Below are positions 15,731 through 38,148 of a DNA stretch of 64,000 nt, piece after piece. The stretch is from an uncultured Oscillospiraceae bacterium. Lineage in GTDB: Bacteria > Bacillota > Clostridia > Acetivibrionales > DTU013. The notes beneath the pieces are model-generated. The model did not search any database and was not told the DNA's origin. It was given only the letters and a program-made list of their open reading frames with translations. Both the position numbers and the translations under genes were made by a program. Each line of letters opens with the position of its first letter. Position 1 is the first letter of the stretch. The stretch is taken from assembly GCA_964512095.1 (NCBI GenBank), contig CAZEIH010000001.1:126091-190090 (forward strand). The letters are read 5' to 3'.

Positions 15731-15886
15731 TTATACCGCTTTTGAGTTGCTCCCCTGATATTTTGCTTTTGTTGCTTCCCCTCCCCTGATATGCCTTTCT
15801 GCTTTGTTTTCCTCCAGAATGACCCTCACGTCTTCAGCAAGCTCAGGGCTCACCCTTAGCAATCGTTCCGTTACATCCTTGTGCAC
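15731..15886 (-). CDS. spoIIID: spoIIID 3' segment (C-terminal 49 codons plus stop) of a split gene
   Basis: Encodes VHKDVTERLLRVSPELAEDVRVILEENKAERHIRGGEATKAKYQGSNSKAV*, colinear with the C-terminal half of SpoIIID (KSTVHKD...RGG.GGE motif region). The upstream part of the 95-aa track ORF is element DNA. Confidence 0.85.
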   Translation of the reverse strand: MHKDVTERLLRVSPELAEDVRVILEENKAERHIRGGEATKAKYQGSNSKAV

Positions 15887-17489
15887 GGTTGTCAGTATCG
15901 GCGACGCTATTTTCAACAGGCGACATGAGGAATGTTCCCGACAAAAGAATAGGGAAGTTAAGGCCTTCCACGTCCTCGCTGATGTTGAAATAAACGTAGA
16001 TCTCATCCACAGACACAATTTTAATCTCTTTGATTATTTTCTTTAAGTCAGCATTCTCAATGCTTTCAGTAAAACTAAATTTATCAAAAATCTCAATAAA
16101 CTGCTTTAGACTCTCCCTGATCTGACGATTCAGTTCTCTGGTCTTGTCGGTGCTATCCAGCTTGAATGATAACCTTTCAATTTCGGCATTGATGGGAACC
16201 ATATCCTGCTTCGCTTCATCCATGGTAATAAGACCATTCACAGCCAATTCCTTTAGCCTGTCACGTTTGCTATGCAACTCACTTAGGTCTGCTTTCGCCT
16301 CATCAAGATCAATGCCATTGTTATCCCTGATATACTCCCTGATTAAACTATTGCACTTGCGCTCAACCTCATCAAAGAAAGATACTTTTCCCTCTACCAG
16401 ATAACTAAAAAGACTGTCCAATCCTTCTTTAAGCCAATCTTCATTTATTCTGGTGTATTCAGATTCGCAGCGGTTTTTGCCATAGGCACTTCTTTTAGAG
16501 CATGTCCACCAAACATACAACGGGCCATCTTTAGAGTGCCTTCTTTGATAACGCCTGTAAGAAAAACCGCATGAACCGCATTTAATTAAGTTGGAAAATA
16601 AATGCTTATTGCTCCTGCGTGAAAATATGTCTTGATAGAGTTCAGCGTTTTTCTTCGTCTGTTCCAGAGCCTTATAAAATTGCTCATCAGATATGATTCT
16701 AAACTCCGGTCTGTCCACCACATACCACTCTTCTTCCGGGTTTTCCTTGCGCTTGTTGGTAAATATATCTGTACTGCTCTCTTTGCCATTGATGACTTGG
16801 CCAATATATATTTCATTTCTCAAAATATTACCCACCGTGTTTTGCGACCAATTATAGTTGGGCTGTCCGTCTTTCAGTTTTTTGGTCTGCACTCGGTTCT
16901 CAAATAAATAGGAAGCGATTCTTGCCATGCCCCATTCTTCTTCCGTATATAAGTCGAAAATTTTCTTGACCCATTCGCTTTCTTCAGGGTTAGGCTCTAA
17001 ATTATATGCATCTATCCTATCATAGCCAAAGACGAAATTAGGCACACGGCCTTTTTCTTTGCCGAATTGCTTTCCAAACTTCACTTTTTCTGAGATGCGC
17101 TGGGATTCACTTTCAGCCAGCATAGCCATAAGATTTAAAGTGAAACCATCAATATCCTTGCCTTCGCCCATATTGACAAGATGCAGATTCACTCCATACA
17201 AGCTCAATTCTCTAGTAACGGTGATAAAATCAAGTGTGTTTCTAAAAAGCCTGCTGATATCTTTAACATAGAGCTTTTCAAATTCTCCACGCTTGGCGGC
17301 TTTTCTCAATCGCTGCAAATCTTTTCTGTTTTGCATCTTTGTAGCAGACTTGCCCTTATCACAATAAATCGCTACTAGTTCATCTCCCCTTTTGGGAATA
17401 TAGCTTTCAAAAAACTCACGCTGATTTTCCAGCGAGCTTTGTTGTTCTTCTTTATCTGTACTAACCCTAATATAAGCGACAGCCTTCAT
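15843..17489 (-). CDS. Large serine recombinase (rec1)
   Basis: 548 aa. N-terminal resolvase catalytic motif AVAYIRVSTDKEEQ, a recombinase domain, and a Cys-rich zinc-ribbon (CGSCGFSYRR...WWTCSKR...C). RBS GAGAGGTG. The ORF reads across attL into host DNA. Confidence 0.9.
   Translation of the reverse strand: MKAVAYIRVSTDKEEQQSSLENQREFFESYIPKRGDELVAIYCDKGKSATKMQNRKDLQRLRKAAKRGEFEKLYVKDISRLFRNTLDFITVTRELSLYGVNLHLVNMGEGKDIDGFTLNLMAMLAESESQRISEKVKFGKQFGKEKGRVPNFVFGYDRIDAYNLEPNPEESEWVKKIFDLYTEEEWGMARIASYLFENRVQTKKLKDGQPNYNWSQNTVGNILRNEIYIGQVINGKESSTDIFTNKRKENPEEEWYVVDRPEFRIISDEQFYKALEQTKKNAELYQDIFSRRSNKHLFSNLIKCGSCGFSYRRYQRRHSKDGPLYVWWTCSKRSAYGKNRCESEYTRINEDWLKEGLDSLFSYLVEGKVSFFDEVERKCNSLIREYIRDNNGIDLDEAKADLSELHSKRDRLKELAVNGLITMDEAKQDMVPINAEIERLSFKLDSTDKTRELNRQIRESLKQFIEIFDKFSFTESIENADLKKIIKEIKIVSVDEIYVYFNISEDVEGLNFPILLSGTFLMSPVENSVADTDNRAQGCNGTIAKGEP
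15880..15886. other. attL core: left copy of the 7-bp direct repeat TGTGCAC
   Basis: Identical heptamer at 38024-38030. It lies exactly at the point where SpoIIID-like coding breaks off. Confidence 0.75.
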
Positions 17490-17534
17490 ACGGATTCACC
17501 TCTCTGTCATATCTCCTATATATTTAATGGTTCT

Positions 17535-17563
17535 ATTATAACGAAATGAATTTTTTTGGTCAA
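17535..17563 (-). promoter_or_regulatory. Near-consensus sigma-A-type promoter for rec1: TTGACC, 17-nt spacer, TATAAT
   Basis: Minus-strand TTGACC at 17563-17558 and TATAAT at 17540-17535, with a 17-nt spacer. About 45 nt upstream of the rec1 ATG. Confidence 0.55.
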
Positions 17564-17564
17564 G

Positions 17565-17599
17565 AAATGAAAACAGGGCAGCTTATGCGCTGTCCTGTT
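17565..17599 (-). terminator. Hairpin plus T-rich tract between the small ORFs and the rec1 promoter
   Basis: Stem AACAGGACAGC / GCTGCCCTGTT (17572-17599), followed on the minus strand by TTTCATTTC. Confidence 0.5.
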
Positions 17600-17750
17600 C
17601 TGTGTATGTACTATCGGTTGAGTTAATGGATTTTATCGCCGCCGCTACGATGCTTTTGGCAACCCCTTGAGACAGTGCATCTAAAATATAACTTAGGATA
17701 GCGGGATCCAGGTTGCTTATTTCACTTTTTTTCTCTAACACCCCTTGCAC
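17583..17750 (-). CDS. Small ORF (55 aa, GTG start), candidate accessory or directionality factor
   Basis: VQGVLEKKSEISNLDPAILSYILDALSQGVAKSIVAAAIKSINSTDSTYTEQDSA. RBS GGGGGTGAG. A similar small ORF lies upstream of rec2. Below the ORF-track size cutoff. Confidence 0.4.
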   Translation of the reverse strand: MQGVLEKKSEISNLDPAILSYILDALSQGVAKSIVAAAIKSINSTDSTYTEQDSA

Positions 17751-17860
17751 TATCTCACCCCCTTTGACCCTGTCCTCTTGCTAATGTATATTGCGGCTTG
17801 GGTGGTTTTATTCCCCTTATTTGGGCGAGCTGTATCTTTGTAAATAAATGGATTTTCCAT
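17750..17860 (-). CDS. Small basic ORF (36 aa)
   Basis: MENPFIYKDTARPNKGNKTTQAAIYISKRTGSKGVR. Strong RBS GGGAGGAAAACT before the ATG. Its stop overlaps the next GTG start (TAGTG). Confidence 0.35.
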   Translation of the reverse strand: MENPFIYKDTARPNKGNKTTQAAIYISKRTGSKGVR

Positions 17861-18015: not shown

Positions 18016-18394
18016 TTATCCCCCGGCACAACACTTCACAGATAGCAGTTTCCCATTGGCCATCATAAACACTTCAGGATATTTGAACATTTCCAGATAC
18101 TTGCTGGCCAACTCATCTGTAAGACCTTTAAAAATTTTCGCTATCTGGCCTTGCCAAGCAGATAAAGAACGTGCCTGCTATGATTTCATATAAATCGCCC
18201 TTGTCATCGGCAAGTCTCCTGTTTAAGTCCAGCCCATTTATTTTTCCTTCCTCGTTACACACAATTGCTACATGGTCAGCAAAAGGATAGATCGCCTCAA
18301 TATAGCCACCTACAACCTTTTGCATGGCCTTAAGCCCCGAATCTATCTGCCTAATCTCTGCCACCTTGTTTGGCTCTACATAAACCACTTTCAC
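18016..18394 (-). pseudogene. DUF3846-like gene, frameshifted
   Basis: GTG start at 18394 with RBS AGGAGGGG. VKVVYVEPNKVAEIRQIDSGL...AGTFFICLARPDSENF stops at 18128. The expected C-terminus KGLTDELASKYLEMFKYPEVF... continues in the +1 frame to 18016. The shift lies in an A/T homopolymer run. Confidence 0.55.
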
Positions 18395-18618
18395 ATAACC
18401 CCTCCTATACCGACAGCTTACATATTTATCCACCAACTTTAGAACCCCTTGGGTCACTTTGGGTCAACATTGGCACCAAATCCATACCTAATCCTTAGAA
18501 CCACCCTAAACCCCTTTTAAAACCCCTTGGGTCAACCCTGGACACTACTCAAACCATACTTGCGACAACCGACAACCTCCATATTCGCAAAATACATTTT
18601 CCTCGGTTGCGATATGTA

Positions 18619-19194
18619 TCACATCTGATTTTTAAGAATCTCCAAGCAAAGCGGGTCTATGTCGCTTTCTTGGATTCTAGTAACTTTGAGCACCATCCGA
18701 TCAATCCCAGAATCAACAATGGAATAATAACTGCCGTTAAAACAGTACCCGGTGCCGTCAAAAATAATATGGGGGATATCCATACAGCTCAAAACCTCGG
18801 ATAAACTGTCACAATTATCCGTGATGGGGAAGAAGTCTCCAATGTCGTCAAATTCAAATTCCGGCTCTTTTTCCTTTGCTGGCTGATCGGAATCATCGTC
18901 ACCGCAGTATAATTCACCAATATGCTCGTCTGCATAGAGTTGATTATTCCGCTCACTTTTGATGAAACGGTTTACCATCTCTTCCATCTGGGATATTTGA
19001 TATGCTATATCGCTGGCCAGCTTTTGATCATCCAAGCTAAACCTTGTATAGTCAAACACATATCCTTTTCCTGTAATCTGATTTAATATTTTCGCACATA
19101 GAATTAAATCTCTGTTATAGTTCTTCATATGGCTATTAACCATATTTTTGATTGCTACTTCAATTGTTTTCTGCTTCTCGATCATGCAGCACAC
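18619..19194 (-). CDS. Hypothetical protein (acidic middle region)
   Basis: 191-aa ORF with no recognisable domain. Its start may be the internal MIEKQK. Confidence 0.45.
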   Translation of the reverse strand: MCCMIEKQKTIEVAIKNMVNSHMKNYNRDLILCAKILNQITGKGYVFDYTRFSLDDQKLASDIAYQISQMEEMVNRFIKSERNNQLYADEHIGELYCGDDDSDQPAKEKEPEFEFDDIGDFFPITDNCDSLSEVLSCMDIPHIIFDGTGYCFNGSYYSIVDSGIDRMVLKVTRIQESDIDPLCLEILKNQM

Positions 19195-19381
19195 CCGCCT
19201 CTCTTAATTCTTTAAGTTTTCTGCCCATGGCACATTGACTGAATCCCTGCATTCTGGCTAAATCCTTGACCTTGACTCCCTCGTTGCGAAGTTTAACCAG
19301 CTCATGATTAGTCAGTTTCTTCCTGCCTGGGTCTACACCGCCAACCAATTCAATTAGGATCCTGCAAATATGATTGGTCAT
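19160..19381 (-). CDS. Small helix-turn-helix protein (sigma-70 region-4-like)
   Basis: 73 aa. LTNHELVKLRNEGVKVKDLARMQGFSQCAMGRKLKEL resembles an HTH. Confidence 0.45.
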   Translation of the reverse strand: MTNHICRILIELVGGVDPGRKKLTNHELVKLRNEGVKVKDLARMQGFSQCAMGRKLKELREAGVLHDREAENN

Positions 19382-19497
19382 TTTTCACCGTTGATTTGAT
19401 GTCAGCGATGGGGAGTTTCTATTTTTGTTTCATGTACCAGAATTTCTGTACCTTCCTTCCTCGTTCTTGAAGTAAATTGAATTTTCCATGAACTGTA

Positions 19498-19526
19498 TTG
19501 ACATTTTTACTCTAACCAGTTAGACT
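19498..19526 (+). promoter_or_regulatory. Sigma-A-type promoter for the blaI/blaR1-like operon: TTGACA, 17-nt spacer, TAGACT
   Basis: TTGACA at 19498-19503 and TAGACT at 19521-19526. Directly followed by the repeated ACTCTAT half-sites, a possible operator. Confidence 0.45.
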
Positions 19527-19566
19527 CTATGTGTACTCTATTGCATTAGAGAAAGGAGCGGTTAAT

Positions 19567-19941
19567 ATGGAAACACCTAAAGTATTTGAGAGCGAATATC
19601 GCTTTTGTCTTATTCTGTGGGAGCACGAGCCTATTGGAAGCGGCGAGCTTGTAAAGCTGTGTAAAAAGCAGCTTGACTGGAAGCCAACCACCACATATAC
19701 GGTCATCAAACGCCTTTCCGAACGTGGTATTCTGAAAAACGAAAACTCAATCGTATCTTCGTTAATTTCAAAGGATGAAGTGCAGGCTGCCGAGATCGAT
19801 GAGCTTGTGGAAAAGAAATTTGAGGGTTCTCTACCGGCTTTTATCACTGCATTTACAAAGCACCAGCAAATTTCAGATAAGGAGATCGATGAAGTACAGA
19901 AAATGATTGACCGATATAGGAAGGGGAATCGCAATGGCTGA
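19567..19941 (+). CDS. BlaI/MecI/CopY-family transcriptional repressor
   Basis: Winged-helix N-terminus (LILWEHEPIGSGELVKL...TTTYTVIKRLSERGIL) and a C-terminal dimerisation helix. RBS AAAGGAG before the ATG at 19567. Its stop overlaps the next gene start (ATGGCTGA). Confidence 0.8.
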   Translation: METPKVFESEYRFCLILWEHEPIGSGELVKLCKKQLDWKPTTTYTVIKRLSERGILKNENSIVSSLISKDEVQAAEIDELVEKKFEGSLPAFITAFTKHQQISDKEIDEVQKMIDRYRKGNRNG

Positions 19942-21796
19942 TATATTCTTGAAATTTATCAACATGAGCATATCCGCAAGCTGGCTTGTGCTTGTTGTTG
20001 TCATTCTAAGATTATTACTAAAAAAGGCACCAAAATGGCTGAACCCTGTGCTATGGGGAATCGTCGGTCTCCGGCTCATTTTGCCCTTTTCCATTGAAAG
20101 CATCCTGAGCCTGATCCCCAGTGCTGAAACAATCAGCCCGGAAATTATTTACTCTCAGGAGCCAGCAATCCATAGTGGTATTCAGGCATTAAACAGCGTG
20201 GTCAATCCCATCATTATGGAATCTTTTACCTCTAATCCTACGGCCAGTATAGATCCATTGCAAATATGGATTCCAATAGCTGCTATTGTTTGGACTGTTG
20301 GTATCGCCGCCATACTTATCTACACGATTATCAGTTATCTGCATCTGAGCAGGCTGGTAAAGACTGCTGTGTTGCTCCGGGATAATATTTATCAGAGTGA
20401 AAATGTTGTATCACCCTTTGTACTCGGCATACTGCGCCCCCACATCTATCTACCATTTAATATGAACGAGAAAGATATAGCTCATGTGATTGCTCATGAA
20501 CAAACGCACATCAAGCGGCGCGATCACTGGATTAAGCCATTTGGCTTTTTAATGCTTGCTTTGTACTGGTTCAATCCTGTGTTGTGGGTGGCGTACATAC
20601 TTCTCTGTCGGGATATTGAGCTTGCCTGTGATGAGGGAGTGATTAAAGAATTGTGTGCAGATCAGCGAGCGGATTATTCGGATGCTCTACTTTCATGCAG
20701 TGCGCCACGACGTATGATTGATGCATGTCCGCTTGCTTTCGGAGAAATTGGTGTGAAAGAGAGGGTGAAAAACGTGCTGAATTATAAAAAGCCTGCGTTC
20801 TGGCTTATTATCGTTGCTGTTGTCATCTGCATCGTCGTAGCTGTGTGCTTTCTAACAAATCCAAAGAAGGCTCCGATCTCTTTAGGCACTATTCAGATAA
20901 CTTGGGCAAATGCATTGGATATGAGATCCAACGAGCCGACATCGTACAAATTGAATGGCGCAGAGCTTGGTGAACTAAAAGACCGTCTGCGGGATTTGGA
21001 GATTGGCAGAAAAAATAATGATTATGGCGGTTTTACGCCTGTGTATTCGCTGTCAATAAAAGCGCAAGGCATGGAGCAATTCATGATTGCAAGCTACAAC
21101 AGCGACGGCACTCATGTAGGTTTGAGGTATGAGGGTGAATATTACCGCATAGAAGATAACGATTTTTCAAGATACCTCAGCAACATTTGTGCTGGGGGCA
21201 ACAGAGCTGAAGCACTCGGTAATAAAATCAAGTTGTCTCTCGATGATGTAATTATGCTTTCTCAAAAAGGTGAAGATCTTTCGTGGGAAGATTTTGAACA
21301 ATTTTCTTATGTGGAAACCGGCTCTGGCCTCTATATCCATGTTTATGAAATCAATCCTTTGTTATCACTTTGGATAGGTGGAGGCAATCTCGACAATGAG
21401 CCAATGTATATCAGCCTTTGCATCAATACGGAGCCAGAGGATGCCATAGACATTCGAACAGAAGATTTAACCGCTTTTATCAGTAAGCATAGAGATGATC
21501 TACCGGAAGCATTTATCTCCCGTATATACAGATTCAACGATTCAGAGGACTTTATAAAAACCGCTGAGGTTGTTCTTAATAAAGATGAGACTTTTACCTT
21601 TAATTTTTCGCCTATCAGCAGTTATCTCGGACATGGTACTTATAAGATCGATGGTAATAGACTGACTTTGAATACAGATGATGGATATTATACCTATGTA
21701 TTTGACATGGTAGATGATACACTTGTTTTCGATGCCGATGCTTCCTCAGAACAGGTTTGGTTTTCTGGCATAACGGATGGTTCGGTGTTCAAGTAA
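19934..21796 (+). CDS. BlaR1/MecR1-like M56 metallopeptidase signal transducer with an unrecognised C-terminal sensor domain
   Basis: N-terminal TM helices, zinc motif HEQTHIKRRDH, then a further TM and about 300 aa extracellular region with no SxxK penicillin-binding motif seen. Confidence 0.75.
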   Translation: MADIFLKFINMSISASWLVLVVVILRLLLKKAPKWLNPVLWGIVGLRLILPFSIESILSLIPSAETISPEIIYSQEPAIHSGIQALNSVVNPIIMESFTSNPTASIDPLQIWIPIAAIVWTVGIAAILIYTIISYLHLSRLVKTAVLLRDNIYQSENVVSPFVLGILRPHIYLPFNMNEKDIAHVIAHEQTHIKRRDHWIKPFGFLMLALYWFNPVLWVAYILLCRDIELACDEGVIKELCADQRADYSDALLSCSAPRRMIDACPLAFGEIGVKERVKNVLNYKKPAFWLIIVAVVICIVVAVCFLTNPKKAPISLGTIQITWANALDMRSNEPTSYKLNGAELGELKDRLRDLEIGRKNNDYGGFTPVYSLSIKAQGMEQFMIASYNSDGTHVGLRYEGEYYRIEDNDFSRYLSNICAGGNRAEALGNKIKLSLDDVIMLSQKGEDLSWEDFEQFSYVETGSGLYIHVYEINPLLSLWIGGGNLDNEPMYISLCINTEPEDAIDIRTEDLTAFISKHRDDLPEAFISRIYRFNDSEDFIKTAEVVLNKDETFTFNFSPISSYLGHGTYKIDGNRLTLNTDDGYYTYVFDMVDDTLVFDADASSEQVWFSGITDGSVFK

Positions 21797-22282: not shown

Positions 22283-23632
22283 CTAATATTTTGACCGTTC
22301 CAACGCCATCCCAATAATCTTATCCGCATGATCCGCCATAAACAACGGAATATTCAGCAGGTCATCATCCATGCGCAGGTTATTCAGTGAAAAGCGAACA
22401 CGCAGCTTTACCTTATCTTCAAATTTTTCCTTGTACTTTTTAAGGCTCCGGCTTTCCACATTGCTCTCGGATTTAACCTCTACCGGCAAAATGTCATTTT
22501 CTCTTTGGATAAGAAAATCAACCTCATACCTTGGGTTATCCATTGTCCAATAACGTGGCATAGCTTCAAACTGGTTTTGTAACGCTTGCAGGACATAATT
22601 CTCACTTAAAGCCCCTTTAAACTCTACAAACAGCCTATTACCTTCACCAAATGCCGAGGGAGCTAATAGAGATAATCTACGCAATAATCCTACATCGACC
22701 ATATATAGTTTAAATGCAGACAAATCGTCATAGGCGGAAATAGGCAGCCCCGGTGCGGTGCTGCGGTATATCTTATAAGTCAAGTTGGCATCACAAAGCC
22801 ATTGCAGAGCATCTTCGTATTCCCTCGCTCTGGCTCCTTCCTTGACAACCTTATAAATAAACTTTTTATTTTCCCTTGCCAGTTGTGAAGGGATTGATTT
22901 CCATATCATTGAGATTTTCGGAAAATCCTTAGGATCAGGGTGCTTGGCAAAATCTCTTTCGTATGCGCCTAAAATATTGGATAGCACCTGCTGCATCAGC
23001 TCCACATCTCGGTCTTGCACCCAAGAGCGAACAGACTCCGGCATACCGCCTGTTACAAAATACATTTTAAGCTTTTCGTATAATGGATTGAAAAACGCCT
23101 CGGGAATCGGCTCAATCCTGTCCACGCTTTTCATATAATCAGCAAAGTTACCGTCGCCATTGGCCATTAAAAACTCCGTAAATGTCATTGGCATAATTTC
23201 TAAAAAATCCACCTTGCCAACTGGAAAAGATGCTGGCTTAGACAATGCAATGCCCAAAAGTGATCCTGCGCAGGCTACATGGTAGTGAGGCGTGTTCTCG
23301 CAGAAATACTTCAGTGTGTTCAGTGCGTTAGGGCATTCCTGTATCTCATCAAAAACAATGAGCGTGTCCTCCGGATTGTCTTGTTTGATGACTTCTCCGC
23401 TGGCCATCATCAGATTTTGCAGAATACGCTCCACATCCTTGGTGCTTTCAAAAAACTGTTTATATTCTGGATGCTCGTCAAAGTTGAAATAGGCCATATT
23501 TTCATAATGGCGTTTTGCAAATTCCTTGAGTAGCCAAGTCTTGCCCACCTGACGCACCCCTTTTAAAATAAGGGGTTTTCTATATTTGGAGTTTTTCCAG
23601 TCCAGCAGTTTTTGCATAGCCAGTCTTTCCAT
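22283..23632 (-). CDS. AAA ATPase with DUF4143-type C-terminal domain (copy 1)
   Basis: Walker A GVRQVGKT and Walker B LIVFDEIQ. The likely start is MERLAMQK (23632) after RBS GGAGGTGG. About 25 substitutions versus copy 2, by eye. Confidence 0.8.
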   Translation of the reverse strand: MERLAMQKLLDWKNSKYRKPLILKGVRQVGKTWLLKEFAKRHYENMAYFNFDEHPEYKQFFESTKDVERILQNLMMASGEVIKQDNPEDTLIVFDEIQECPNALNTLKYFCENTPHYHVACAGSLLGIALSKPASFPVGKVDFLEIMPMTFTEFLMANGDGNFADYMKSVDRIEPIPEAFFNPLYEKLKMYFVTGGMPESVRSWVQDRDVELMQQVLSNILGAYERDFAKHPDPKDFPKISMIWKSIPSQLARENKKFIYKVVKEGARAREYEDALQWLCDANLTYKIYRSTAPGLPISAYDDLSAFKLYMVDVGLLRRLSLLAPSAFGEGNRLFVEFKGALSENYVLQALQNQFEAMPRYWTMDNPRYEVDFLIQRENDILPVEVKSESNVESRSLKKYKEKFEDKVKLRVRFSLNNLRMDDDLLNIPLFMADHADKIIGMALERSKY

Positions 23633-27397: not shown

Positions 27398-27617
27398 ACT
27401 TTATCTCCTGTGATTAGGATTGCAAATACAAATATTAGTCCACATATATTGACATAATTATAGCATACGCCAGCAGTAAGTATAAAGAAAAAAGTCAAAA
27501 AAGAGAGAATAAAGTCCACCTATACTAAAACTATACCGCTCTTTTAGCCCGTCTGTACCCTATCTGGACTGTCCATGCAGAAAATTGACGTTTATGCTGA
27601 TATTGGAGGTGATCGAC

Positions 27618-27944: not shown

Positions 27945-27977
27945 ACGAAGCACTAAGATATGAGAGGTGGAGTTTAA

Positions 27978-29474: not shown

Positions 29475-29594
29475 TGCGAGATATCCGGCGCCCAAACGAT
29501 GGTGACCGAAGAATTGAATGGTGTGATAGATAAAGCTGTCACTCAGATTCCATTGATAGTGTTGTCAAGATATTGAAAGGGGTGGATGTAATAA

Positions 29595-31244
29595 ATGAGA
29601 AAAAGCAAATTGTGTATTTTTCTTCTATGCGCTATGATGCTTATGGCGCTGATGCCAACAGCAGCGTTGGCCACAGAACCTGCGCTAGCGGTGGACATTG
29701 TCACGGACGTTTCAACGGTTACAGAACTGAGGACAGCGCTGGAAAATAATGCGGGCGCTCATATCAGGCTGACAAAGAATATCACCTTCACCAAGGCAAA
29801 CGCAGCTGACAGGGATATCGGTGTTTATCTCGGCGAGGGCTGCTATACCATTGATTTGAACGGTTTTACGCTGAAATATCATTACATGACGGGCGGTGAG
29901 TTCACTGACCAAGGCTCGCCGCTGGCAAGCGGTAAGGCCAAGCTGCTCGTTATTAACGGCCCCGGTTCACTTATTGGAGGCAGCCATGGTTTTGAGCAAC
30001 TCGACCAGTTCGGCACTTTAATCGTCAATGGCGGCACGTTCAAGGGGGTCATGGGCTTCGGCATCCGCATGACCGGCGGCATTACTTATATGAACGGCGG
30101 GACTGTGACAGGTAATTTCGGTGGAATTGAACACGGGGACGGTATTGTCATAATGAACGGCGGAAACGTGAAAAGCGTGGTTCATAACCCTAGGGGCAGC
30201 ATAACGCCGAAAAAATACGGTTTGATCAAGGACGGCGTATTTACCGGCAACACTGTTCTTGAGGATATAATTCTGATTGTCCCCGATCTCACTATAAAAG
30301 CGGGATCGTCCATTAAGTTAATACGCGGCGGAGGGCTTGTCGTCAAGAACAGCTTAGTCAACAATGGCACGTTCACTTATGAATCGGGACTGAAATCCAT
30401 AGGTGGCAAGGCAGTGATAAGCAAGGATTTTCAGGTTACTATTGCACAGGATGTAACATTCAGCTCTCTAAAGATGCAGGAGCGTGCTCGGCTGATCATA
30501 GAAAACGGAGCGACTGTGGCCGTCAGCGACACTTTTGTCACGGAGCAGGACTGCTCTATCATAGCTAAAAACGGAACCCTCAGGCTTTTGGGCAGCATTG
30601 ACCATAGTGGATATGCCGAGGGCGTTCCTGAGCTTGAGGCGCTTCAGGACGGTAACGGCGGCGGAGGTCAAGGTCCAGGGCCGGAGCAGCGTGACTTCAT
30701 TGCTGAAACCGCTGCTGCCGAAAAGCTCAAGGCACTGGGGCTATTTCAAGGCGTTGGAACCAACCCGGACGGCAGTACAAACTTTGACCTCGCTCGAAAA
30801 CCCTCGCGAACAGAGGCGCTGGTCATGCTCATACGGCTGCTCGGCAAGGATAACGAGGTCATATCCGGAAGCTGGACTCATCCCTTCACCGATGTTCCGA
30901 AGTGGGCGGACAATTATGTTGGATATGCCTATGAAAACAAGCTCACAAACGGCATCTCCGCAACCGAGTTTGGTACAGGAACGGCCTCCTACAAGACATA
31001 TCTGACCTTCGTTTTGCGCGCGCTCGGCTACTCGGATAAGGGAGGTGTCGATTTCACATGGGACATGCCTGATGATCTGGCGCTTTCCATTGGTATCATG
31101 GCTGCGGGTATGCACCATGAAAATTTCCTCCGCGCCGACGTGGTGCTGGTTTCAGAAGCCGCATTGTCGGCAAGGCTCAAGGATGGCAGTGATTTGCTGC
31201 TTGATAAGCTGATTGAAGATGGAGCTGTCACACAGGTGCCATGA
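29595..31244 (+). CDS. Secreted repeat protein (NGG-type beta-helix-like repeats) with C-terminal SLH-like anchoring region
   Basis: Signal peptide. Repeats VNGGTFKG / MNGGTVTG / MNGGNVKS. A Gly-rich linker GNGGGGQGPGPE. C-terminal HPFTDVPKWADNYVGYAYENKL. Confidence 0.6.
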   Translation: MRKSKLCIFLLCAMMLMALMPTAALATEPALAVDIVTDVSTVTELRTALENNAGAHIRLTKNITFTKANAADRDIGVYLGEGCYTIDLNGFTLKYHYMTGGEFTDQGSPLASGKAKLLVINGPGSLIGGSHGFEQLDQFGTLIVNGGTFKGVMGFGIRMTGGITYMNGGTVTGNFGGIEHGDGIVIMNGGNVKSVVHNPRGSITPKKYGLIKDGVFTGNTVLEDIILIVPDLTIKAGSSIKLIRGGGLVVKNSLVNNGTFTYESGLKSIGGKAVISKDFQVTIAQDVTFSSLKMQERARLIIENGATVAVSDTFVTEQDCSIIAKNGTLRLLGSIDHSGYAEGVPELEALQDGNGGGGQGPGPEQRDFIAETAAAEKLKALGLFQGVGTNPDGSTNFDLARKPSRTEALVMLIRLLGKDNEVISGSWTHPFTDVPKWADNYVGYAYENKLTNGISATEFGTGTASYKTYLTFVLRALGYSDKGGVDFTWDMPDDLALSIGIMAAGMHHENFLRADVVLVSEAALSARLKDGSDLLLDKLIEDGAVTQVP

Positions 31245-31286
31245 ATAATAGTAGTGTCAATATATTGAAAGAGGAGTGAAGTTGAA

Positions 31287-34200
31287 ATGAAAAAAATGAA
31301 ATTGTTTGCATTTGTTATGTGCGTCGCGATGCTTGTGACGCTGATACCCACGGTAGCCTTGGCAGCAGATCCTCAAATAGTAGGGTATATCGATCACGAT
31401 ATTACGGTAGATACGACATGGCCTGTCGGAGAATACTATATCTGCAGGACAGAAGACAACAACGAACCAATAGTGGCAAGCGGTGTTACGTTGACAATCG
31501 AGAGCGGTTCAAAAGTATATTTTGGTTATCGCACTAATGTGCCAATACCAAGTACTGAAACGATTCCCTATTCATGTCTGACAGTAAACGGTACCCTGAA
31601 TGCAACCGGTGTAACATTTACTACCATTCCCGACGTCGGAGATCAGACCGATTGGCGGGATGCCGGATGGATGGGCATAGAGGCCAGGTCTGAAGACTCG
31701 TCAAATGCAGCAAGCCTTTCGTTTACCAATTGCATATTTGAATACTGCTGCGGCTCAGGAACTCTGTGCGGAGCAGATTCCAACGACGGTGGAGATAATC
31801 AAAGGGTTGATATAACTGTGTCGGGCTGTACGTTCGAAAACCCGATAAAAGAGGTAACAGATGGACTCTATGCGGCCATCCGTTATAACAACGGGTATCA
31901 TCTGGCCGGAACAGGAACACTTTCCGTCTCTGGCTCTAACTTTACAGACTATAGTCACGGTGTTCTGGTAGAGGGAAACTCCCGGGACGATATCGATGTA
32001 TCCGTCAACGGCTGCACGTTTACCGATATAGGCATAATGCCGGTGACAATTCACAGTGGTCGGTCAGCAAGCGTGACAAACTGCACATTCAACAATATAG
32101 AAAGTATACGGGACGGTGCAGCTCATATATTTACCGACTATGAAGCAAGTAATAAGGTTCAAACGGTTACGCTGACGGGCAATATCTTCAACGGGGCTCC
32201 CACAACGACCAAATACCCGGTCGTAGTTGGAGCCAATGTAAAAATTAACGAAAATGTAACTAGCGATACCAGCACATTCAGTGCAGATTATCCTGCGGTA
32301 TACCGGTATATAAGATTTTCAGGCGGTATCGGCAGCACCAGTACAACCAACCCCTCTGTTGAGCATGCGGTTTGGGGCTTTACGGGCATTCCGTACCTGA
32401 TGACTAACGGTGTGAAGGTCTCAGGAAATGGAACTAAAGACGATGGCATCCACAGCTCTCTTGAAATAAAACCCGGCGTTACTGTTAACTTTGCTGCAGG
32501 AGTAGGACTTACAATAGACGGAGCATTAACAGCTGAAGGTGAAAACGGTAACCCCATCACTTTCCAAAAACAACAAGGCGCGGATTGGTGCTTTGGACTT
32601 GAAGCCGACGGTGCTCTTGAGGGTCCTATCAGCTTAAAATACTGTAACGTTAATGACTTAAACAGCGGCATTAACGTTAAGGCACCAAGTACAGCTACGA
32701 CGCCTCCCACCATTGCGATTGAAAACTGTACAATTCAAAGCGTGAACCACCAAACTGCTTTAAAAGGCAAAAACATAACGGTCACAGACTCCGGCTTCAC
32801 AGGTCTTGGCGTTGATTTGGCCAACAGCCGTAATGTGACGATAACAGATTGTACAATCACCATGAACGCAGGAAGCTGGACCGAAAACGGCGTAAAAATA
32901 GAAAACTGTGATAACATTACGCTGCAGGGCTGCGATATTACATCAAATGGGGTACTGGGCGGAAATGGTGTTGACATTTACAATTCAAAATCTGTTTTAC
33001 TAAAAAACTGCCTCGTTACAGAGTTCCCCGAATATGGGGTCAGCCTTAATCGAAATCCTTATGAGACTATAGAAGAGGGTGCACCACTTATTGAGAACTG
33101 TACCGTAGTCTCTAACGGATACGCCGGTGCTATTTTCAGGTATTCCGGCAATGTCAATAATCCAGTTGAATACAGTTCTTTTATCAAGAATAGTATCATC
33201 ACTAATAACGGGGTCGCCTTACCAGAAGATGATCCAAAGCTGGATATAATCCGTTTAGCTGGCTATGCAGTTGCCATCCCTGAGGGTAGTATCTTGTATT
33301 CACTTATAGGTAACGATGACGCACCATTTGGCGTCTATTATTATTCTCACCCCTCATTATTGAATGCTGGATATCCAATGAGTATTTATCCGATCCCAAC
33401 GACTGCCTACTCAAACCGTGTTAGCGGTCCTGCAAACTTTACCGATGCAGAAAATAATGATTACCATTTAAAATCTGCAGAGGGCAGATGGGACGGAAAC
33501 GGGTGGGTCAATGACGACGTTACGAGCAATTGCATCAATGCAGGCGATCCGAACTCCTCATTTGCTAACGAGCCGGCTGACAACGGGGACCGAATCAATA
33601 TAGGCCGTTACGGCAACACGGCAGAAGCCTCAAAACTAGCCACCACCAATCCGTCCTATTTGCAGTACATTAATCTACCTGACGGAAAGGTTGGCCAATA
33701 TGATGCTTATACAATTACGCCGGAGAGTAGCTCCGTTTCACCTGTGGTTTCTGGCGAAAGCTACAGCTTTACCGTTACAGTAAACAGTTATCATTATAAG
33801 ACCGGTGGCTTTGCGGTTAAGGTCGATGGCGTAGAGCTGAGTTCGGTGGATAATATTTACACCATCGAGAATATCACAGAAGACAAAACAATAACCGTGG
33901 AGGGCATTGCGCTGATACAAGGTCCAACATTCCTCGCTCAGCCTCAAGACTTAACTGTTGCTCCGGGAGCACCGGCGTCCTTTAGTGTCGAAGTAGAAAC
34001 GGAGGGCTATGAGCCTACATATAAATGGAGAGTGAGCGAAGACGGCGGAGAAAACTGGGTGGACGCAGGAGATACTGACGCACAGCTTAATATTGCATCA
34101 ACCACTATCACGCAAAGCGGTTGGAAATACATCTGCTTTGTATACTATCCGTACGGGGGCAATTCTTATTCCGTTGCAAGCGAAGTGGCAACGCTTACAG

Positions 34201-35516
34201 TTGTAGATGATGAGACCCAGTACAGTATCGCTGTCAGCGTAAGCCCCGCAGCGGGCGGTGCGGTAAGCGGCGGAGGCAGCGTCAATGCGGGTGCATCCGT
34301 CACTGTTACAGCCACACCTAACGCAAGCTACAACTTTGTCAAATGGACGGAGAGCGGAGCGCAGGTCAGTACCAGTGCGAGCTATACATTCAATGTTACT
34401 GGGAACCGTACACTTGTCGCCGTTTTTGAGAGCGCAACACCACCACCGCCGCCGCCACCACCACCGCCATCCGATCCGCCTGTCACTAATCAACCAGTCA
34501 TTACTCCTCCAGTCAACGAGATTGGCAACGGCGAAAGCATCACAGCCTCAAACCTCGCGAGTCTTATCTCGGAAGGCAAGGATCTTATCGTGGAGGATGA
34601 TGATGGTGCAAAGCTGGTATTTAATGCTGAAGCCCTCAAAGGCATCAGCAGTCAGGCAATCGGTAGTGTCAAGGCTGAAATTTCAGACGTGTCGGATGAA
34701 TATCAGGAAACTTATCCCGACAAGCTGGTGTTCTCATTGACAGTAACTTCCGGTGACAAGGTCATCACCAATTTCGACGGTTCTGTCACAGTATCTCTGC
34801 CCTATGAGCTGAAAGAAGGCGAAGACCCTAAGAATGTCAAGGTCTGGCATCTCGCAGCGGACGGCTCTATGACAGAAATTCCCTGTACCTATAATCCCTC
34901 GACTAAAAAGGTAAGCTTTGTTGTCAGCCACTTCTCCTTGTATATGGTAGGTGTCGCTTCTACACATGTCAATCCTTTTACCGATGTGAATGAGAAGGAT
35001 TGGTTCTATAACGCGGTTAGTTTCGCCTACAAAAACGGTTTAATGACCGGCACAGGCGATACGACCTTCAGCCCGCAGGCCAACACCTCCCGGGGCATGA
35101 TAGTCACCATCCTCTGGCGGTTGGAAGGCGAACCGGATACGGCAAATCCCATTGCCTTCACAGACGTTGATGAGGGTAAATGGTATCACGATGCCGTGGC
35201 ATGGGCTTCGGAAAAAGGCATTGTTGACGGTTACTCTAAAGATAAATTCGGGCCAGAAGACAACACTACCCGTGAGCAGATGGCCAAGATACTTTGCTCA
35301 TATGCGGCTTACAAGAGCTACGATGTAAGCGCCCGCGGCGATCTATCAGTATTCACCGACAGTCCATCGAACTGGGCGTTGGAGTATATGCAGTGGGCAG
35401 TTGCCGAGGGTCTGTTTCAAGGCAAGGGCAATGCTATCCTTGACCCGCTGGGCAATACCAAACGCAGTGAGTGCGCAGCCATTTTACAGAGATTTATAGA
35501 AAAGTATAACCCATAA
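31287..35516 (+). CDS. Giant surface protein: parallel beta-helix repeats, Ig-like and Listeria-Bacteroides-type repeat, poly-Pro linker, three C-terminal SLH domains
   Basis: 1409 aa with a signal peptide. Repeated NCT/GC..T.NG right-handed beta-helix-like motifs. SVSPAAGGAVSGGGSVNAGASVTVTATPNASYNFVKWT repeat. A PPPPPPPPPSDPP linker. SLH motifs FTDVNEKDWFYNAV, FTDVDEGKWYHDAV, FTDSPSNWALEYM. Confidence 0.8.
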   Translation: MKKMKLFAFVMCVAMLVTLIPTVALAADPQIVGYIDHDITVDTTWPVGEYYICRTEDNNEPIVASGVTLTIESGSKVYFGYRTNVPIPSTETIPYSCLTVNGTLNATGVTFTTIPDVGDQTDWRDAGWMGIEARSEDSSNAASLSFTNCIFEYCCGSGTLCGADSNDGGDNQRVDITVSGCTFENPIKEVTDGLYAAIRYNNGYHLAGTGTLSVSGSNFTDYSHGVLVEGNSRDDIDVSVNGCTFTDIGIMPVTIHSGRSASVTNCTFNNIESIRDGAAHIFTDYEASNKVQTVTLTGNIFNGAPTTTKYPVVVGANVKINENVTSDTSTFSADYPAVYRYIRFSGGIGSTSTTNPSVEHAVWGFTGIPYLMTNGVKVSGNGTKDDGIHSSLEIKPGVTVNFAAGVGLTIDGALTAEGENGNPITFQKQQGADWCFGLEADGALEGPISLKYCNVNDLNSGINVKAPSTATTPPTIAIENCTIQSVNHQTALKGKNITVTDSGFTGLGVDLANSRNVTITDCTITMNAGSWTENGVKIENCDNITLQGCDITSNGVLGGNGVDIYNSKSVLLKNCLVTEFPEYGVSLNRNPYETIEEGAPLIENCTVVSNGYAGAIFRYSGNVNNPVEYSSFIKNSIITNNGVALPEDDPKLDIIRLAGYAVAIPEGSILYSLIGNDDAPFGVYYYSHPSLLNAGYPMSIYPIPTTAYSNRVSGPANFTDAENNDYHLKSAEGRWDGNGWVNDDVTSNCINAGDPNSSFANEPADNGDRINIGRYGNTAEASKLATTNPSYLQYINLPDGKVGQYDAYTITPESSSVSPVVSGESYSFTVTVNSYHYKTGGFAVKVDGVELSSVDNIYTIENITEDKTITVEGIALIQGPTFLAQPQDLTVAPGAPASFSVEVETEGYEPTYKWRVSEDGGENWVDAGDTDAQLNIASTTITQSGWKYICFVYYPYGGNSYSVASEVATLTVVDDETQYSIAVSVSPAAGGAVSGGGSVNAGASVTVTATPNASYNFVKWTESGAQVSTSASYTFNVTGNRTLVAVFESATPPPPPPPPPPSDPPVTNQPVITPPVNEIGNGESITASNLASLISEGKDLIVEDDDGAKLVFNAEALKGISSQAIGSVKAEISDVSDEYQETYPDKLVFSLTVTSGDKVITNFDGSVTVSLPYELKEGEDPKNVKVWHLAADGSMTEIPCTYNPSTKKVSFVVSHFSLYMVGVASTHVNPFTDVNEKDWFYNAVSFAYKNGLMTGTGDTTFSPQANTSRGMIVTILWRLEGEPDTANPIAFTDVDEGKWYHDAVAWASEKGIVDGYSKDKFGPEDNTTREQMAKILCSYAAYKSYDVSARGDLSVFTDSPSNWALEYMQWAVAEGLFQGKGNAILDPLGNTKRSECAAILQRFIEKYNP

Positions 35517-35589
35517 TACAACAAGGTTACATAATGTCACCGGACTTACAGGTGTCTGGTTTACTCTGAACACATATGATAACAAAAAA

Positions 35590-35628
35590 CAGCCCAAAAT
35601 CCATTACACTTGGATTTTAGGCTGTTTT
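35590..35628 (+). terminator. Rho-independent terminator after the surface-protein operon
   Basis: Stem CAGCCCAAAATCCA / TGGATTTTAGGCTG (one mismatch), followed by TTTT. Confidence 0.65.
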
Positions 35629-35688
35629 GAATTGTTTTGATAATAAACCATGGTATCAATTACTTTGTTCACTCTTTGATGTGATATA

Positions 35689-36116
35689 TTAAAACAGTGA
35701 TATTTGAGTTAGTTTAATGCTTTTTATTTTTCGGTCTGTTATCTTATCTGATGGTTCAATACCGTATTCGTCTAGGTCAACTTCTTCGGCACATGTTTTT
35801 AAAGTAATGGCATTGGCATGGGCAATTCCAGAAAATTCTCGTGCAATAATATTAATTTCATTTTGAGTATGCTGAACTACATTTTCAGCCTTCAGATTAT
35901 TTTTCACTTTATCATAAATGTCAACAAAGCTAAAAACACAGCTGCTCGTAAATCATTTGTAATTAGCTTTGCTCCAAGTGATTTAAACATTTCTGCCACA
36001 ACAACTGAACCTGAAAATAAATCAGCTACAGTAGATCCAGAAATATCCCCATATGTTTTACTAACTATATCTTTGATGAATTCAAGTGCTTTAACTTTAG
36101 AACCCAGATATCGCAT
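35689..36116 (-). pseudogene. DNA adenine methyltransferase remnant (N-terminal motif only, frame-disrupted)
   Basis: MRYLGSKVKALEFI...VADLFSGSVVVAEMFKSLGAKLITND matches the N-terminus and AdoMet motif of D12-class methylases. The frame then breaks at 35904-35907, and no DPPY-type motif was found. Confidence 0.5.
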
Positions 36117-36343: not shown

Positions 36344-37690
36344 TCAACCCATCCGCTCCAGTGCCATCCCAATAATCTTATCAGCATAATCCGCCATAAA
36401 CATCGGAATATTCAGCAGGTCATCATCAAGGCGCAGGTTATTCAATGAAAACCTAACACGCAGCTTTACCTTGTCTTCATATTTCTCCTTGTACTTTTTA
36501 AGGCTACGGCTTTCCACATTGCTCTCGGATTTTACTTCCACTGGCAAAATATCGTTTTCTCGTTGAATCAGAAAGTCCACTTCATATCTTGGGTTTTCAA
36601 CAGTCCAATAGCGTGGCATGGCTTCAAACTGGTTTTGTAGTGCCTGCAGGACATAATTCTCACTTAACGCGCCTTTAAACTCCACAAACAGTCTGTTTCC
36701 CTCGCCAAAAGCCGAAGGAGCCAAGAGAGATAGTCGGCGCAACAATCCTACATCTGCCATATACAACTTGAATGCAGACAAATCATCGTATGCTGAAATA
36801 GGCAACCCCGGTGCGGTACTGCGGTATATCTTATAAGTCAAATTGGCATCGCACAGCCATTGCAGGGCATCTTCATATTCCCTTGCTCTGGCACCGTCTT
36901 TAACAACCTTATAGATAAATTTTTTATTTTCTCTTGCAAGCTGCGAAGGGATTGACTTCCAGATCATAGATATCTTTGGAAAGTCTTTAGGTTCAAGGTG
37001 TTTTGCAAAATCTTTTTCATATGCCCCTAGAATGTTGGACAGCACTTGTTGCATCAGCGCCACATCCCGGTCTTGCGCCCAGGAGCGAACAGACTCAGGC
37101 ATACCGCCTGTTACAAAATACATTTTTAGTTTTTCATAAAGGGGATTGAAAAAGGCCTCTGGGATAGGCTCAATACTATCCACGCTTTTCATATAATCAG
37201 CTAAGTTACCGTCACCATTAGCCATTAAAAATTCAGTAAAGGTCATTGGCATAATTTCTAAAAAATCTACTTTTCCAACTGGGAAGGACGCTGGCTTAGA
37301 CAATGTTATCCCCAATAACGATCCTGCACAGGCCACATGATAAATGGGCGTGTTCTCACAGAAATATTTCAATGTGTTCAATGCATTAGGGCATTCCTGT
37401 ATCTCGTCAAAAACAATGAGCGTTTTCTCTGGTCTGTCTCGTTTAATGATTTCACCACTGGCCATCATCAGATTTTGCAAAATGCGATTGACATCTTTGG
37501 TACTTTCAAAAAACTGCTTGTATTCAGGGTGCTCATCAAAGTTAAAATAAGCCATGTTTCCATAGTGGCGTTTTGCGAATTCCTTGAGAAGCCAAGTCTT
37601 GCCGACTTGACGTACCCCTTTTAAAATAAGGGGTTTTCTATATTTGGAGTTTTTCCAGTCCAGCAGTTTTTGCATAATCAGTCTTTCCAC
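36344..37690 (-). CDS. AAA ATPase with DUF4143-type C-terminal domain (copy 2)
   Basis: Near-identical paralog of 22283-23632. Likely GVG start VERLIMQK at 37690 after GGTGGTGG. Confidence 0.8.
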   Translation of the reverse strand: MERLIMQKLLDWKNSKYRKPLILKGVRQVGKTWLLKEFAKRHYGNMAYFNFDEHPEYKQFFESTKDVNRILQNLMMASGEIIKRDRPEKTLIVFDEIQECPNALNTLKYFCENTPIYHVACAGSLLGITLSKPASFPVGKVDFLEIMPMTFTEFLMANGDGNLADYMKSVDSIEPIPEAFFNPLYEKLKMYFVTGGMPESVRSWAQDRDVALMQQVLSNILGAYEKDFAKHLEPKDFPKISMIWKSIPSQLARENKKFIYKVVKDGARAREYEDALQWLCDANLTYKIYRSTAPGLPISAYDDLSAFKLYMADVGLLRRLSLLAPSAFGEGNRLFVEFKGALSENYVLQALQNQFEAMPRYWTVENPRYEVDFLIQRENDILPVEVKSESNVESRSLKKYKEKYEDKVKLRVRFSLNNLRLDDDLLNIPMFMADYADKIIGMALERMG

Positions 37691-37899
37691 ACTACCACCA
37701 CCAAAATAACACATTATTATACAAGTTTTGCGTATGATAATCACACTATATTGATATAGCATAGTCCAATTTCCAATATAAGTCAAGTCTAATCACGTTA
37801 TTATAAATAAATTGCTGCAAAAAATCACATTCTTATGTACTTCCTTGTCGATAGCCTACTCTGCATTATCGTATTTTAATCTACATCCTGCTGCAAAAC

Positions 37900-37930
37900 A
37901 AAACCTGCCCCGATAAACAAGGCAGGTTTT
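37900..37930. terminator. Symmetric hairpin AAAACCTGCC-N11-GGCAGGTTTT, copy 2
   Basis: Identical to 23809-23839. On the minus strand it lies about 60 nt downstream of the stop of the truncated spoIIID 5' fusion ORF. Confidence 0.6.
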
Positions 37931-38023
37931 CTTCGCTTTATGTTTCACTATTTTCCTTATGGTTTCAGCCCTTAAGCCACATATTCTATTATCCATTTAA
38001 ACCGACACCGATTGTGATAACTG

Positions 38024-38030
38024 TGTGCAC
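38024..38030. other. attR core: right copy of the 7-bp direct repeat TGTGCAC
   Basis: Identical to 15880-15886. It is the point where SpoIIID-like coding switches to the unrelated tail TVITIGVGLNG*. Confidence 0.75.
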
Positions 38031-38148
38031 CGTACTTTTACTAATACCAAATCTTTTAGCTGCTGCTCTTACTGTAGTCTTTTTATCAATAATGTAATTT
38101 GCAAGTTCTATTGCCCTCTCTTCAATATATCCCTTCAACTGTATATAC
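38025..38148 (-). CDS. spoIIID: spoIIID 5' segment (N-terminal 38 codons plus shared VH codons) of a split gene
   Basis: TTG start at 38148 with RBS AGAGGGGGT 8 nt upstream. Encodes KGYIEERAIELANYIIDKKTTVRAAAKRFGISKSTVH, colinear with the SpoIIID N-terminus and HTH. The track ORF 37989-38204 is this segment plus an element-encoded tail. Confidence 0.85.

Follow-up and report, generated by a model that had tools for sequence, protein, structure and literature searches.

Elements that interrupt sporulation genes and are excised during development have been established for sigK, spsM, gerE, spoVFB and spoVR (PMC5595907, PMC5025042, PMC4191935). The skin element in sigK uses the recombinase SpoIVCA in B. 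subtilis, and CD1231 together with the recombination directionality factor CD1234 in C. difficile (PMC5025042). In Bacillus cereus ATCC 10987, gerE is split by gin, which encodes the recombinase GirC together with GirX (PMC5595907). A large survey of integrative elements does not list spoIIID as a target (PMC7192596). However, an element in this gene is not unprecedented: the literature check proposed in an earlier note on the DNA analyzed here yielded one prior listing, that of Ruminiclostridium cellulolyticum H10, whose spoIIID holds a skin-like element of 64.7 kb, with the gene fragments Ccel_3110 and Ccel_3179 and the recombinase Ccel_3111 (Galperin et al. 2022, bioRxiv 10.1101/2022.02.25.481979, Table S3). 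Here, we describe a stretch of 64,000 nt (the window) from an uncultured Oscillospiraceae bacterium, contig CAZEIH010000001.1, in which spoIIID is split by an insert of two tandem units, A and B, each with its own large serine recombinase (LSR-A and LSR-B). In our view, the best explanation, with a probability of roughly two in three, is a 22,144-bp composite of two units that sits at the CA dinucleotide of the His38 codon and is excised in the mother cell to rebuild spoIIID.

The window shares with R. cellulolyticum the target gene, a break at about the same place (126-nt 5' open reading frame, ORF) and a serine recombinase at the element's edge. However, Ccel_3111 adjoins the 5' fragment on the opposite strand, whereas LSR-A adjoins the 3' fragment on the same strand. 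The R. cellulolyticum case is listed, with no description of a family, attachment (att) sites, a partner ORF or a distribution. The closest functional analogue is gin. Like gin, the window insert is not a phage, carries more than one serine recombinase gene and encodes a small putative accessory factor, and in both cases the gene for a very small mother-cell helix-turn-helix (HTH) factor is split at a short shared core (gerE 74 aa, spoIIID 87 aa). In contrast, gin contains three unrelated recombinase genes in one element, whereas the window holds two paralogues of 52% identity in two units. Furthermore, SpoIIID acts earlier, at the sigmaE stage, than GerE, and excision is established for gin, whereas for the spoIIID insert we infer it from sequence. 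The resemblance to skin comprises widely varying sizes (2.6-48 kb for skin, 3-22 kb for the spoIIID elements), a recombination module as the only shared part, and a deletion that rejoins the gene in frame. In contrast to skin, the target gene and the recombinase clade are different, and the LSR ORF of the window crosses the crossover point.

The earlier note had proposed that spoIIID is split at two TGTGCAC cores and that deletion of 15887-38030 creates an in-frame protein of 87 aa. Both proposals were confirmed. On the plus strand, TGTGCAC occurs just twice in the 64 kb, at 15880 and at 38024, and in silico removal of the 22,144 bp resulted in the expected ORF. The split point lies after codon 38 (His38) of the minus-strand gene. 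The start had been placed at 38148, which is 10 nt off and lies on the ribosome binding site; the TTG start is at 38138. The parts of the split gene and the two outer cores are as follows:

37989..38138, minus strand: spoIIID 5' fragment, codons 1-38 at 38138-38025, TTG start, upstream ribosome binding site GAGGGGG
15731..15886, minus strand: spoIIID 3' fragment, VHKDVTERL...SNSKAV*, V37 and H38 duplicated, then K39 to the natural stop
38024..38030, minus strand reading GTGCACA: attL core, inferred crossover CA at 38027-38026
15880..15886, minus strand reading GTGCACA: attR core, inferred crossover CA at 15883-15882

Beginning with the TTG codon, the 5' fragment translates to (M/L)KGYIEERAIELANYIIDKKTTVRAAAKRFGISKSTVH. 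It then runs into 11 unrelated codons, TVITIGVGLNG*, which stem from the P' arm of the element, with the stop at 37989-37991. The 3' fragment had been marked as PF12116 by a gene caller on a contig of the same organism. The joined product turned out to be colinear with SpoIIID, as had been claimed: it covers positions 1-80 of the 82-position Pfam profile PF12116 (SpoIIID) with a match of 2.5e-40 and scores 129 bits against the equivalog TIGR02844 (cutoff 111.5) over positions 1-79 of 80, its residues 1-81 align with the solved B. subtilis structure 2L0K, and intact SpoIIIDs of 87 aa match it at 100% coverage with identities of up to 93%. Judged by these alignments, it is a bona fide full-length SpoIIID. 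The break after H38 falls within helix 34-48, the second HTH helix, in the AlphaFold model of a 93%-identical homologue, in agreement with the earlier placement of the break inside an HTH helix. On this model, the insertion destroys the HTH, and neither fragment would be functional.

An alignment of LSR-A and LSR-B was used to scan one genome per species, and 80 loci were kept. A spoIIID 3' fragment starting at the same V37/H38 position was found at 29 of the 39 closest LSR loci, and at none of the 41 more distant ones. Recombinase identities among the closest loci range from 91% down to about 35%. The 3' fragment is located at -43 to +149 nt from the LSR stop in 25 of the 29 loci and about 2 kb downstream in the other four. 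The carrier hosts span Oscillospiraceae, Lachnospiraceae, Acetivibrionales, Peptococcaceae and Carboxydocellales and include the genera Evtepia, Dysosmobacter, Herbinix, Anaerocolumna, Zhenhengia, Acetanaerobacterium and Caproiciproducens; five of the 29 species representatives are cultured isolates. The cultured carriers are Dysosmobacter segnis BX15, Zhenhengia yiwuensis NSJ-12, Acetanaerobacterium elongatum CGMCC 1.5012, Caproiciproducens galactitolivorans BS-1 and Anaerocolumna aminovalerica DSM 1283. At nine loci both gene fragments were within the fetched stretch. Those elements are 3.0-6.7 kb long, and joining at the CA gave an intact SpoIIID of 82-89 aa in 9 out of 9 cases. Because the same break point recurs beside homologous recombinases in 29 other genomes, chance is excluded as the origin of the split. 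The comparisons support an LSR clade that appears dedicated to one spoIIID codon, with the conserved coding sequence of the recognition helix as its presumed chromosomal site, attB.

A search for uninterrupted alleles, which had been suggested in the earlier note, revealed natural empty sites. The exact joined 87-aa protein is present in a public protein collection, and its gene lies on a Logan contig of 992 bp from SRR8925743. The coding sequence of this intact allele is identical to the in silico join at 263 of 264 nt, with one synonymous difference, and its natural attB equals the predicted join; by this measure, the split gene shows no decay. The flanks of the contig are 85-93% identical to the window. 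Because of these diverged flanks, the allele is attributed to a related strain, one that the element never entered or from which it was lost, and not to excision in the window strain. In more distant relatives, with a SpoIIID of 93% identity, spoIIID is uninterrupted in the same SpoIIT-murA-spoIID-M23 context, and when these loci are aligned with the window, the breaks fall exactly on the two cores.

Within one study, the sibling samples SRR8925743 and SRR8925752 contain an empty and an occupied allele, respectively, for the same SpoIIID protein. This would also fit a reversible switch, by which stochastic or stress-induced excision and reintegration in vegetative cells would turn sporulation on and off at the population level. 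With a directionality factor present, LSR systems work in both directions, and comK with phage phi10403S in Listeria is an analogue. However, the flank divergence identifies the empty allele as that of another strain rather than as an excision product, and all experimentally studied interruptions of sporulation genes resolve in the mother cell (PMC5595907, PMC5025042). A switch of this kind is quite unlikely, also in view of the promoter motif described below.

The source contig is metagenome-derived (the window is part of NCBI WGS LSQX01, and the organism is from anaerobic digesters), and repeats common to both units can mislead assemblers. Nevertheless, a chimeric contig that falsely links mobile DNA to the two spoIIID halves is hardly credible. 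The integrated junction between LSR-A and the spoIIID 3' fragment recurs in four independent assemblies (JGI, Logan, ENA). Samples in which the organism is present include SRR8925752, SRR3166067 and JGI 3300038805. The internal junction between the units is present on a separate Logan contig (L085, SRR8925752, 2263 bp), together with the exact 573-aa LSR-B and a small ORF of 39 aa, so that a further assembly reproduces the tandem junction. Finally, the same architecture is found in 29 other genomes, isolates included.

The half-sites of the element, its P and P' arms, were located next to the cores and at the boundary of the two units:

37997..38023, minus strand: outer P' arm CAGTTATCACAATCGGTGTCGGTTT
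15887..15913, minus strand: unit A P arm ..AGCGTCGCCGATACTGACAACC, within the C-terminal coding region of LSR-A
23900..23951, minus strand: internal attP-like junction of unit B and unit A, ACCGACAC-N14-GTACAAA-N15-GTGTCGGT, CA at 23926-23925

In a three-junction alignment, the left part of the internal junction resembles the element side of the left junction and its right part the element side of the right junction, so that it reads P(B)-core-P'(A). The pattern ACCGACAC-N14-RTNCANA-N15-GTGTCGGT matches it exactly, with 0 matches expected by chance. As inverted repeats, the element half-sites agree at 17-20 of 27 positions, except for the unit A P arm and the internal P' arm (14 of 27), and the two host half-sites (B arms) match at just 6 of 27. 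A CA is at the symmetry center of all three window cores. It is the sole core dinucleotide common to attL and attR in every locus and lies in the His38 codon. As CA is always shared by attL and attR, it was taken as the inferred crossover dinucleotide, and the junction sequences show site-specific integration of the LSR elements at the CA of His38. The excised chromosome is predicted to contain an attB with ...AGTAAAAGTACGGTGCACAAGGATGTAACGG..., and the circle of the composite an attP with ...GATACTGACAACCGTGCACACAGTTATCACAATCGG.... Dyad symmetry was also tried for assigning the P' arm to one of the units, and it gave no decision: the outer P' arm fits the reverse complements of the unit B and the unit A P arm about equally (20/27 and 19/27, respectively).

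Across the family, the arms of the two sides covary and sort into two clades, ACCGACAC/GTGTCGGT versus CCGTTCC/GGAACGG. The recombinase ORFs cross the crossover. The LSR-A ORF ends within the spoIIID 3' fragment, and that of LSR-B continues through the internal junction and terminates inside the unit A P' arm. In clade 2 (L011-L024), the TAA stop of the recombinase is built from the spoIIID codons CAT-AAA, and the C-terminus of the enzyme therefore differs between the integrated and the excised state. A conserved C-terminal LSR tail in the circular form was considered and dropped. LSR-A and LSR-B cross the core in different frames, and conservation past the P' arm is therefore at the DNA level. 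This DNA conservation extends about 45 nt past the expected P' half-site (GGTTGCATTGGGTGTTTGAATATGCGGC; window 23860-23925, L003 4581-4640, L004 1429-1490), which exceeds the typical length of an LSR half-site.

Two related non-phage units, unit B of 14,101 bp and unit A of 8,043 bp, lie in tandem and together make up the 22,144-bp insert. In the direction of spoIIID, the order in a unit is P' arm, hairpin, DUF4143 ATPase, cargo, small ORF, LSR and P arm. The earlier reading as a skin-like LSR element stood with respect to the intact LSRs at the expected end, the attL and attR sites and the spoIIID-dedicated clade, whereas the single element that it assumed had to be replaced by two units. The recombination modules comprise the following features:

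15843..17489, minus strand: LSR-A, large serine recombinase of 548 aa with Resolvase, Recombinase and Zn ribbon domains
17583..17750, minus strand: small conserved ORF A, 55 aa, motif LDPAILxxILDALSxGVAKSIV, gene call in independent assemblies
17783..17813, minus strand: promoter-like motif GAATAAA-N16-TATACATT of the sigmaE/K type (-35 ATA, -10 CATAnnnT-like), 5' of small ORF A and LSR-A
23864..25585, minus strand: LSR-B, large serine recombinase of 573 aa with the same three domains
25688..25807, minus strand: small conserved ORF B, 39 aa, LPDDILQKIAETLALNIARKIVAES, of the ORF A family, gene call in L085

Both recombinases appear intact. LSR-A covers positions 1-144 and LSR-B positions 1-143 of the 145-position profile of the N-terminal resolvase catalytic domain, PF00239; the motif YIRVST is invariant between the two, and PF07508 and PF13408 are present in both. 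In PHROGs, the integrase family phrog_95 matches at 3.7e-98. Like skin, the insert interrupts a sporulation gene, deletion between short direct repeats restores the frame, and the recombinase LSR-A is at the element edge and abuts attR, an arrangement that is also found in 25 related loci. The reading as a prophage or defective prophage was rejected, because phage structural, packaging or lysis genes were not found with Pfam and PHROGs. The PHROGs matches in the insert are the integrase, a DUF3846 family without an assigned function and, marginally (E 0.0015), an HTH DNA-binding family.

The tandem could have originated from a second element that integrated beside a resident one, or from homologous recombination via the DUF4143 gene; the comparison of the arms favors neither origin. 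In SCCmec-type composite arrays (CcrA/B), related serine-recombinase elements likewise accrete in tandem at one site, with an internal hybrid junction. However, the similarity to CcrB and CcrA in NCBIfam is weak (CcrB 93 bits, cutoff 900), and the recombinases are not Ccr proteins. Moreover, SCCmec inserts at the end of orfX, whereas the window insertion destroys the coding sequence of its target.

A member of the small ORF family is found immediately upstream of the LSR in 26 of the 29 loci and in both window units. The family motif is LDPAILxxILDALSxGVA(K/R)SIV in clade 1 and FHNPNxxEETAKYLxKxI in clade 2. Its position and conservation make the small ORF the leading candidate for the recombination directionality factor. 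SPbeta in spsM (SprA and SprB; PMC4191935, PMC5499854) similarly combines an LSR with a small directionality factor, and a sporulation-specific promoter times its excision. In contrast, SPbeta is a functional phage, whereas the window insert is devoid of phage genes, and spsM is a late spore-surface gene and not a regulator.

Mother-cell promoters in C. difficile and B. subtilis have a -35 ATA and a -10 CATAnnnT, 16-18 nt apart (PMC3789822). The motif GAATAAA-N16-TATACATT of the LSR-A subclade fits this sigmaE/K type by its sequence. It has been kept in 6 out of 6 elements of the subclade, while the spacers have diverged. A strict pattern, which was partly derived from the same sequences, was found in 10 of 31 upstream regions versus 3.3% of control windows. 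The conserved sigmaE/K-type promoter motif of the subclade argues against vegetative switching. In favor of switching, most clade-2 elements have no recognizable sigmaE-like motif.

What the sequences show is a split gene that can be joined in frame, recombinases that are intact, the architecture of the att sites, a site specificity common to the whole family, a partner ORF that is conserved, and the existence of empty sites. From these, we infer excision itself, its mother-cell specificity, the role of the small ORF as directionality factor and the joint exit of both units. In this scheme, spoIIID would remain split and inactive in vegetative cells and in the forespore. In the mother cell, the sigmaE-type promoter would drive the small ORF and the recombinase. 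Recombination by the two proteins would then take place between the outer sites, attL at 38024-38030 and attR at 15880-15886, and the whole 22-kb composite would leave as a circle carrying P(A)-core-P'(outer). An intact spoIIID would be rebuilt under its own promoter, while the forespore would retain the element and secure its inheritance.

Several results weigh against this scheme. The predicted attP junctions were sought in JGI metagenome contigs and IMG/VR, both as the unit A P arm with the core and CAGT and as a general clade-1 pattern, with 0 hits; the general clade-1 pattern recovers the internal junction of the window, and assembled contigs rarely capture excised circles. A terminal-overlap check of the short whole-contig LSR loci likewise revealed no circular excised forms. 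The small ORFs A and B have no match in Pfam or PHROGs. No clean sigmaE-like motif is present at unit B, most clade-2 loci are without a clear match, and the strict pattern, partly derived from the same sequences as it is, was found in just 4 of 25 upstream regions outside the LSR-A subclade. Excision of the composite would need one LSR, or a mix of both, that pairs the unit A P arm with the unit B P' arm. A second spoIIID was not found within the 64-kb window, to which this search was confined. Lastly, near-identity to the intact allele is equally expected after a recent insertion, and the lack of decay is not proof of selection.

The last point, together with the failure to find an excision junction in the contig searches, would also be accounted for by a dead-end insertional inactivation without developmental excision, in carriers that are asporogenous or are losing sporulation; the 263/264-nt identity fits a very recent insertion. 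Several cultured carriers (Dysosmobacter, Acetanaerobacterium, Caproiciproducens) are reported to be non-spore-forming. A literature search on sporulation of Anaerocolumna aminovalerica gave nothing usable. However, the fragments are intact and rejoin in frame at 9 out of 9 loci in distant hosts, and the 3' fragments are intact in 29 species. The adjacent sporulation genes spoIID, spoIIQ-like and spoIIT are also intact. Conservation extends to the recombinase, its partner ORF and the att arms, and the mother-cell-type promoter motif has been kept in the LSR-A subclade. Finally, R. cellulolyticum H10, with its split spoIIID, is listed as a spore-former (Galperin et al. 2022). Inactivation without return is therefore unlikely, and we favor excision in the mother cell.

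The remaining features of the insert are the hairpins, the ATPase genes and the cargo:

37885..37945, minus strand: terminator-like hairpin and U-run, 3' of the truncated spoIIID 5' ORF, about 90-150 nt inside the element, folding dG -25.6, z -4.94
23795..23855, minus strand: terminator-like hairpin and U-run, just inside the unit A P' end, folding dG -24.7, z -5.96
36344..37786, minus strand: DUF4143/AAA_14 ATPase, unit B
22283..23686, minus strand: DUF4143/AAA_14 ATPase, unit A, sharing 94% identity with the copy in unit B
18128..21796, both strands: unit A cargo, by Pfam/NCBIfam profiles
18128-18457, minus strand: DUF3846 protein, unit A
18619-19194, minus strand: unknown ORF of 191 aa, unit A
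19160-19381, minus strand: HTH-like ORF of 73 aa, unit A
19531-19941, plus strand: BlaI-type repressor, unit A
19907-21796, plus strand: BlaR1/M56 sensor, unit A
26033..36116, both strands: unit B cargo, GC up to 45-52%
26033-27397, minus strand: membrane LuxR-type regulator, unit B
27978-29474, plus strand: SLH/transglutaminase protein, unit B
29595-31244, plus strand: protein of 549 aa, unit B
31287-35516, plus strand: SLH beta-helix protein of 1409 aa, unit B
35689-36116, minus strand: DUF1848 and D12 methyltransferase remnants, unit B, two short ORFs with partial matches only

Three large surface proteins are encoded in unit B, two of them with SLH domains, and the two short ORFs at 35689-36116 look like decayed cargo. 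The hairpins belong to a 67-nt segment that is present twice in the insert; on folding, it gives a strong hairpin with a U-run after it. By its terminator-like structure, the hairpin at 37885..37945 would stop spoIIID transcripts inside the element. A terminator scan gave nothing at either element end, though folding yielded strong hairpins there. In a sigma-70 promoter scan, the outer element end (37780-38520) was without a site, and the three matches near the internal junction were unremarkable (shuffle mean 1.5).

On the side of the host, the sporulation gene order that the earlier note had described for the right flank was recovered as SpoIIT-MurA-SpoIID-M23 peptidase:

38506..42622, minus strand: M23 peptidase (SpoIIQ-like), SpoIID, MurA and SpoIIT/DUF1779, in the same order as at the empty sites L081-L084

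A sequence with the look of a sigmaE-type promoter, ACATACT-N15-CATATATT at 38305-38336 on the minus strand, precedes the spoIIID start by about 170 nt, and the split gene thus seems to retain its own promoter. Immediately downstream of spoIIID is an ORF of 467 aa without a Pfam family (13860-15263, minus strand). In the relatives L081-L084, mreB/mbl and flagellar rod genes follow spoIIID, and the downstream synteny is broken in the window organism. Further along the right flank, 42777-51884 (minus strand) contains two very large ORFs of 1337 and 1685 aa, the first of which has SLH, fn3 and purple acid phosphatase-like domains and resembles the unit B cargo in kind.

Within the family, minimal elements of 3 kb carry one cargo gene, namely a flavin reductase-rubredoxin-like fusion in L003 (4749-5459) or a membrane permease-like protein of 454 aa in L028 (216-1580), L031 and L034. 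At one locus (L001, JAEWSN010000052, 2850-3100), an LSR 91% identical to LSR-A has the same P arm and the core ATACAGA, followed by GC-rich DNA that is not spoIIID. By its sequence, this is an off-target or alternative insertion site, and off-target insertion evidently happens. In an Anaerocolumna metagenome-assembled genome (L039, JAQZAX010000108), an intact spoIIID-like gene (2278-2514) lies directly upstream of the split copy. It is 58% identical to the joined product of the window, and this host may have a spare spoIIID paralogue.

An LSR family with this att architecture, partner ORF, minimal 3-kb forms and tandem arrangement appears to be undescribed; neither the dedicated recombinase clade nor any of these traits came up in the literature searches. 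The chances are about even, in our estimate, that the wider proposal also holds. It states that the family ranges from 3-kb minimal to 22-kb composite elements and would use the invariant codons of the SpoIIID recognition helix as a universal attB in Clostridia. Its excision would be under sigmaE control and carried out by the LSR with a new small directionality factor, in the tandem by recombination between arms of two units. A DNA rearrangement would thus become a checkpoint for the mother-cell transcription factor that acts earliest, upstream of the cascade from SpoIIID via SpoIVCA to the sigK rearrangement.

SpoIIID is the first dedicated mother-cell transcription factor, and in B. subtilis it switches on the skin recombinase. 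Because spoIVCA expression in B. subtilis needs SpoIIID, an element inside spoIIID is barred from that circuit and must fire from sigmaE alone or earlier. It must therefore leave one step earlier than any characterized intervening element. The split form explains why spoIIID may appear absent or pseudogenized in genome-based sporulation predictions for gut and digester Clostridia. The natural units of about 3 kb, with a recombinase, a small partner ORF and one cargo gene, are a compact and tractable set of recombinase, att sites and putative directionality factor. If the proposed excision is true, the transition from sigmaE to SpoIIID depends on a DNA rearrangement, and a widespread, compact and testable family of elements is located at the top of the mother-cell cascade.

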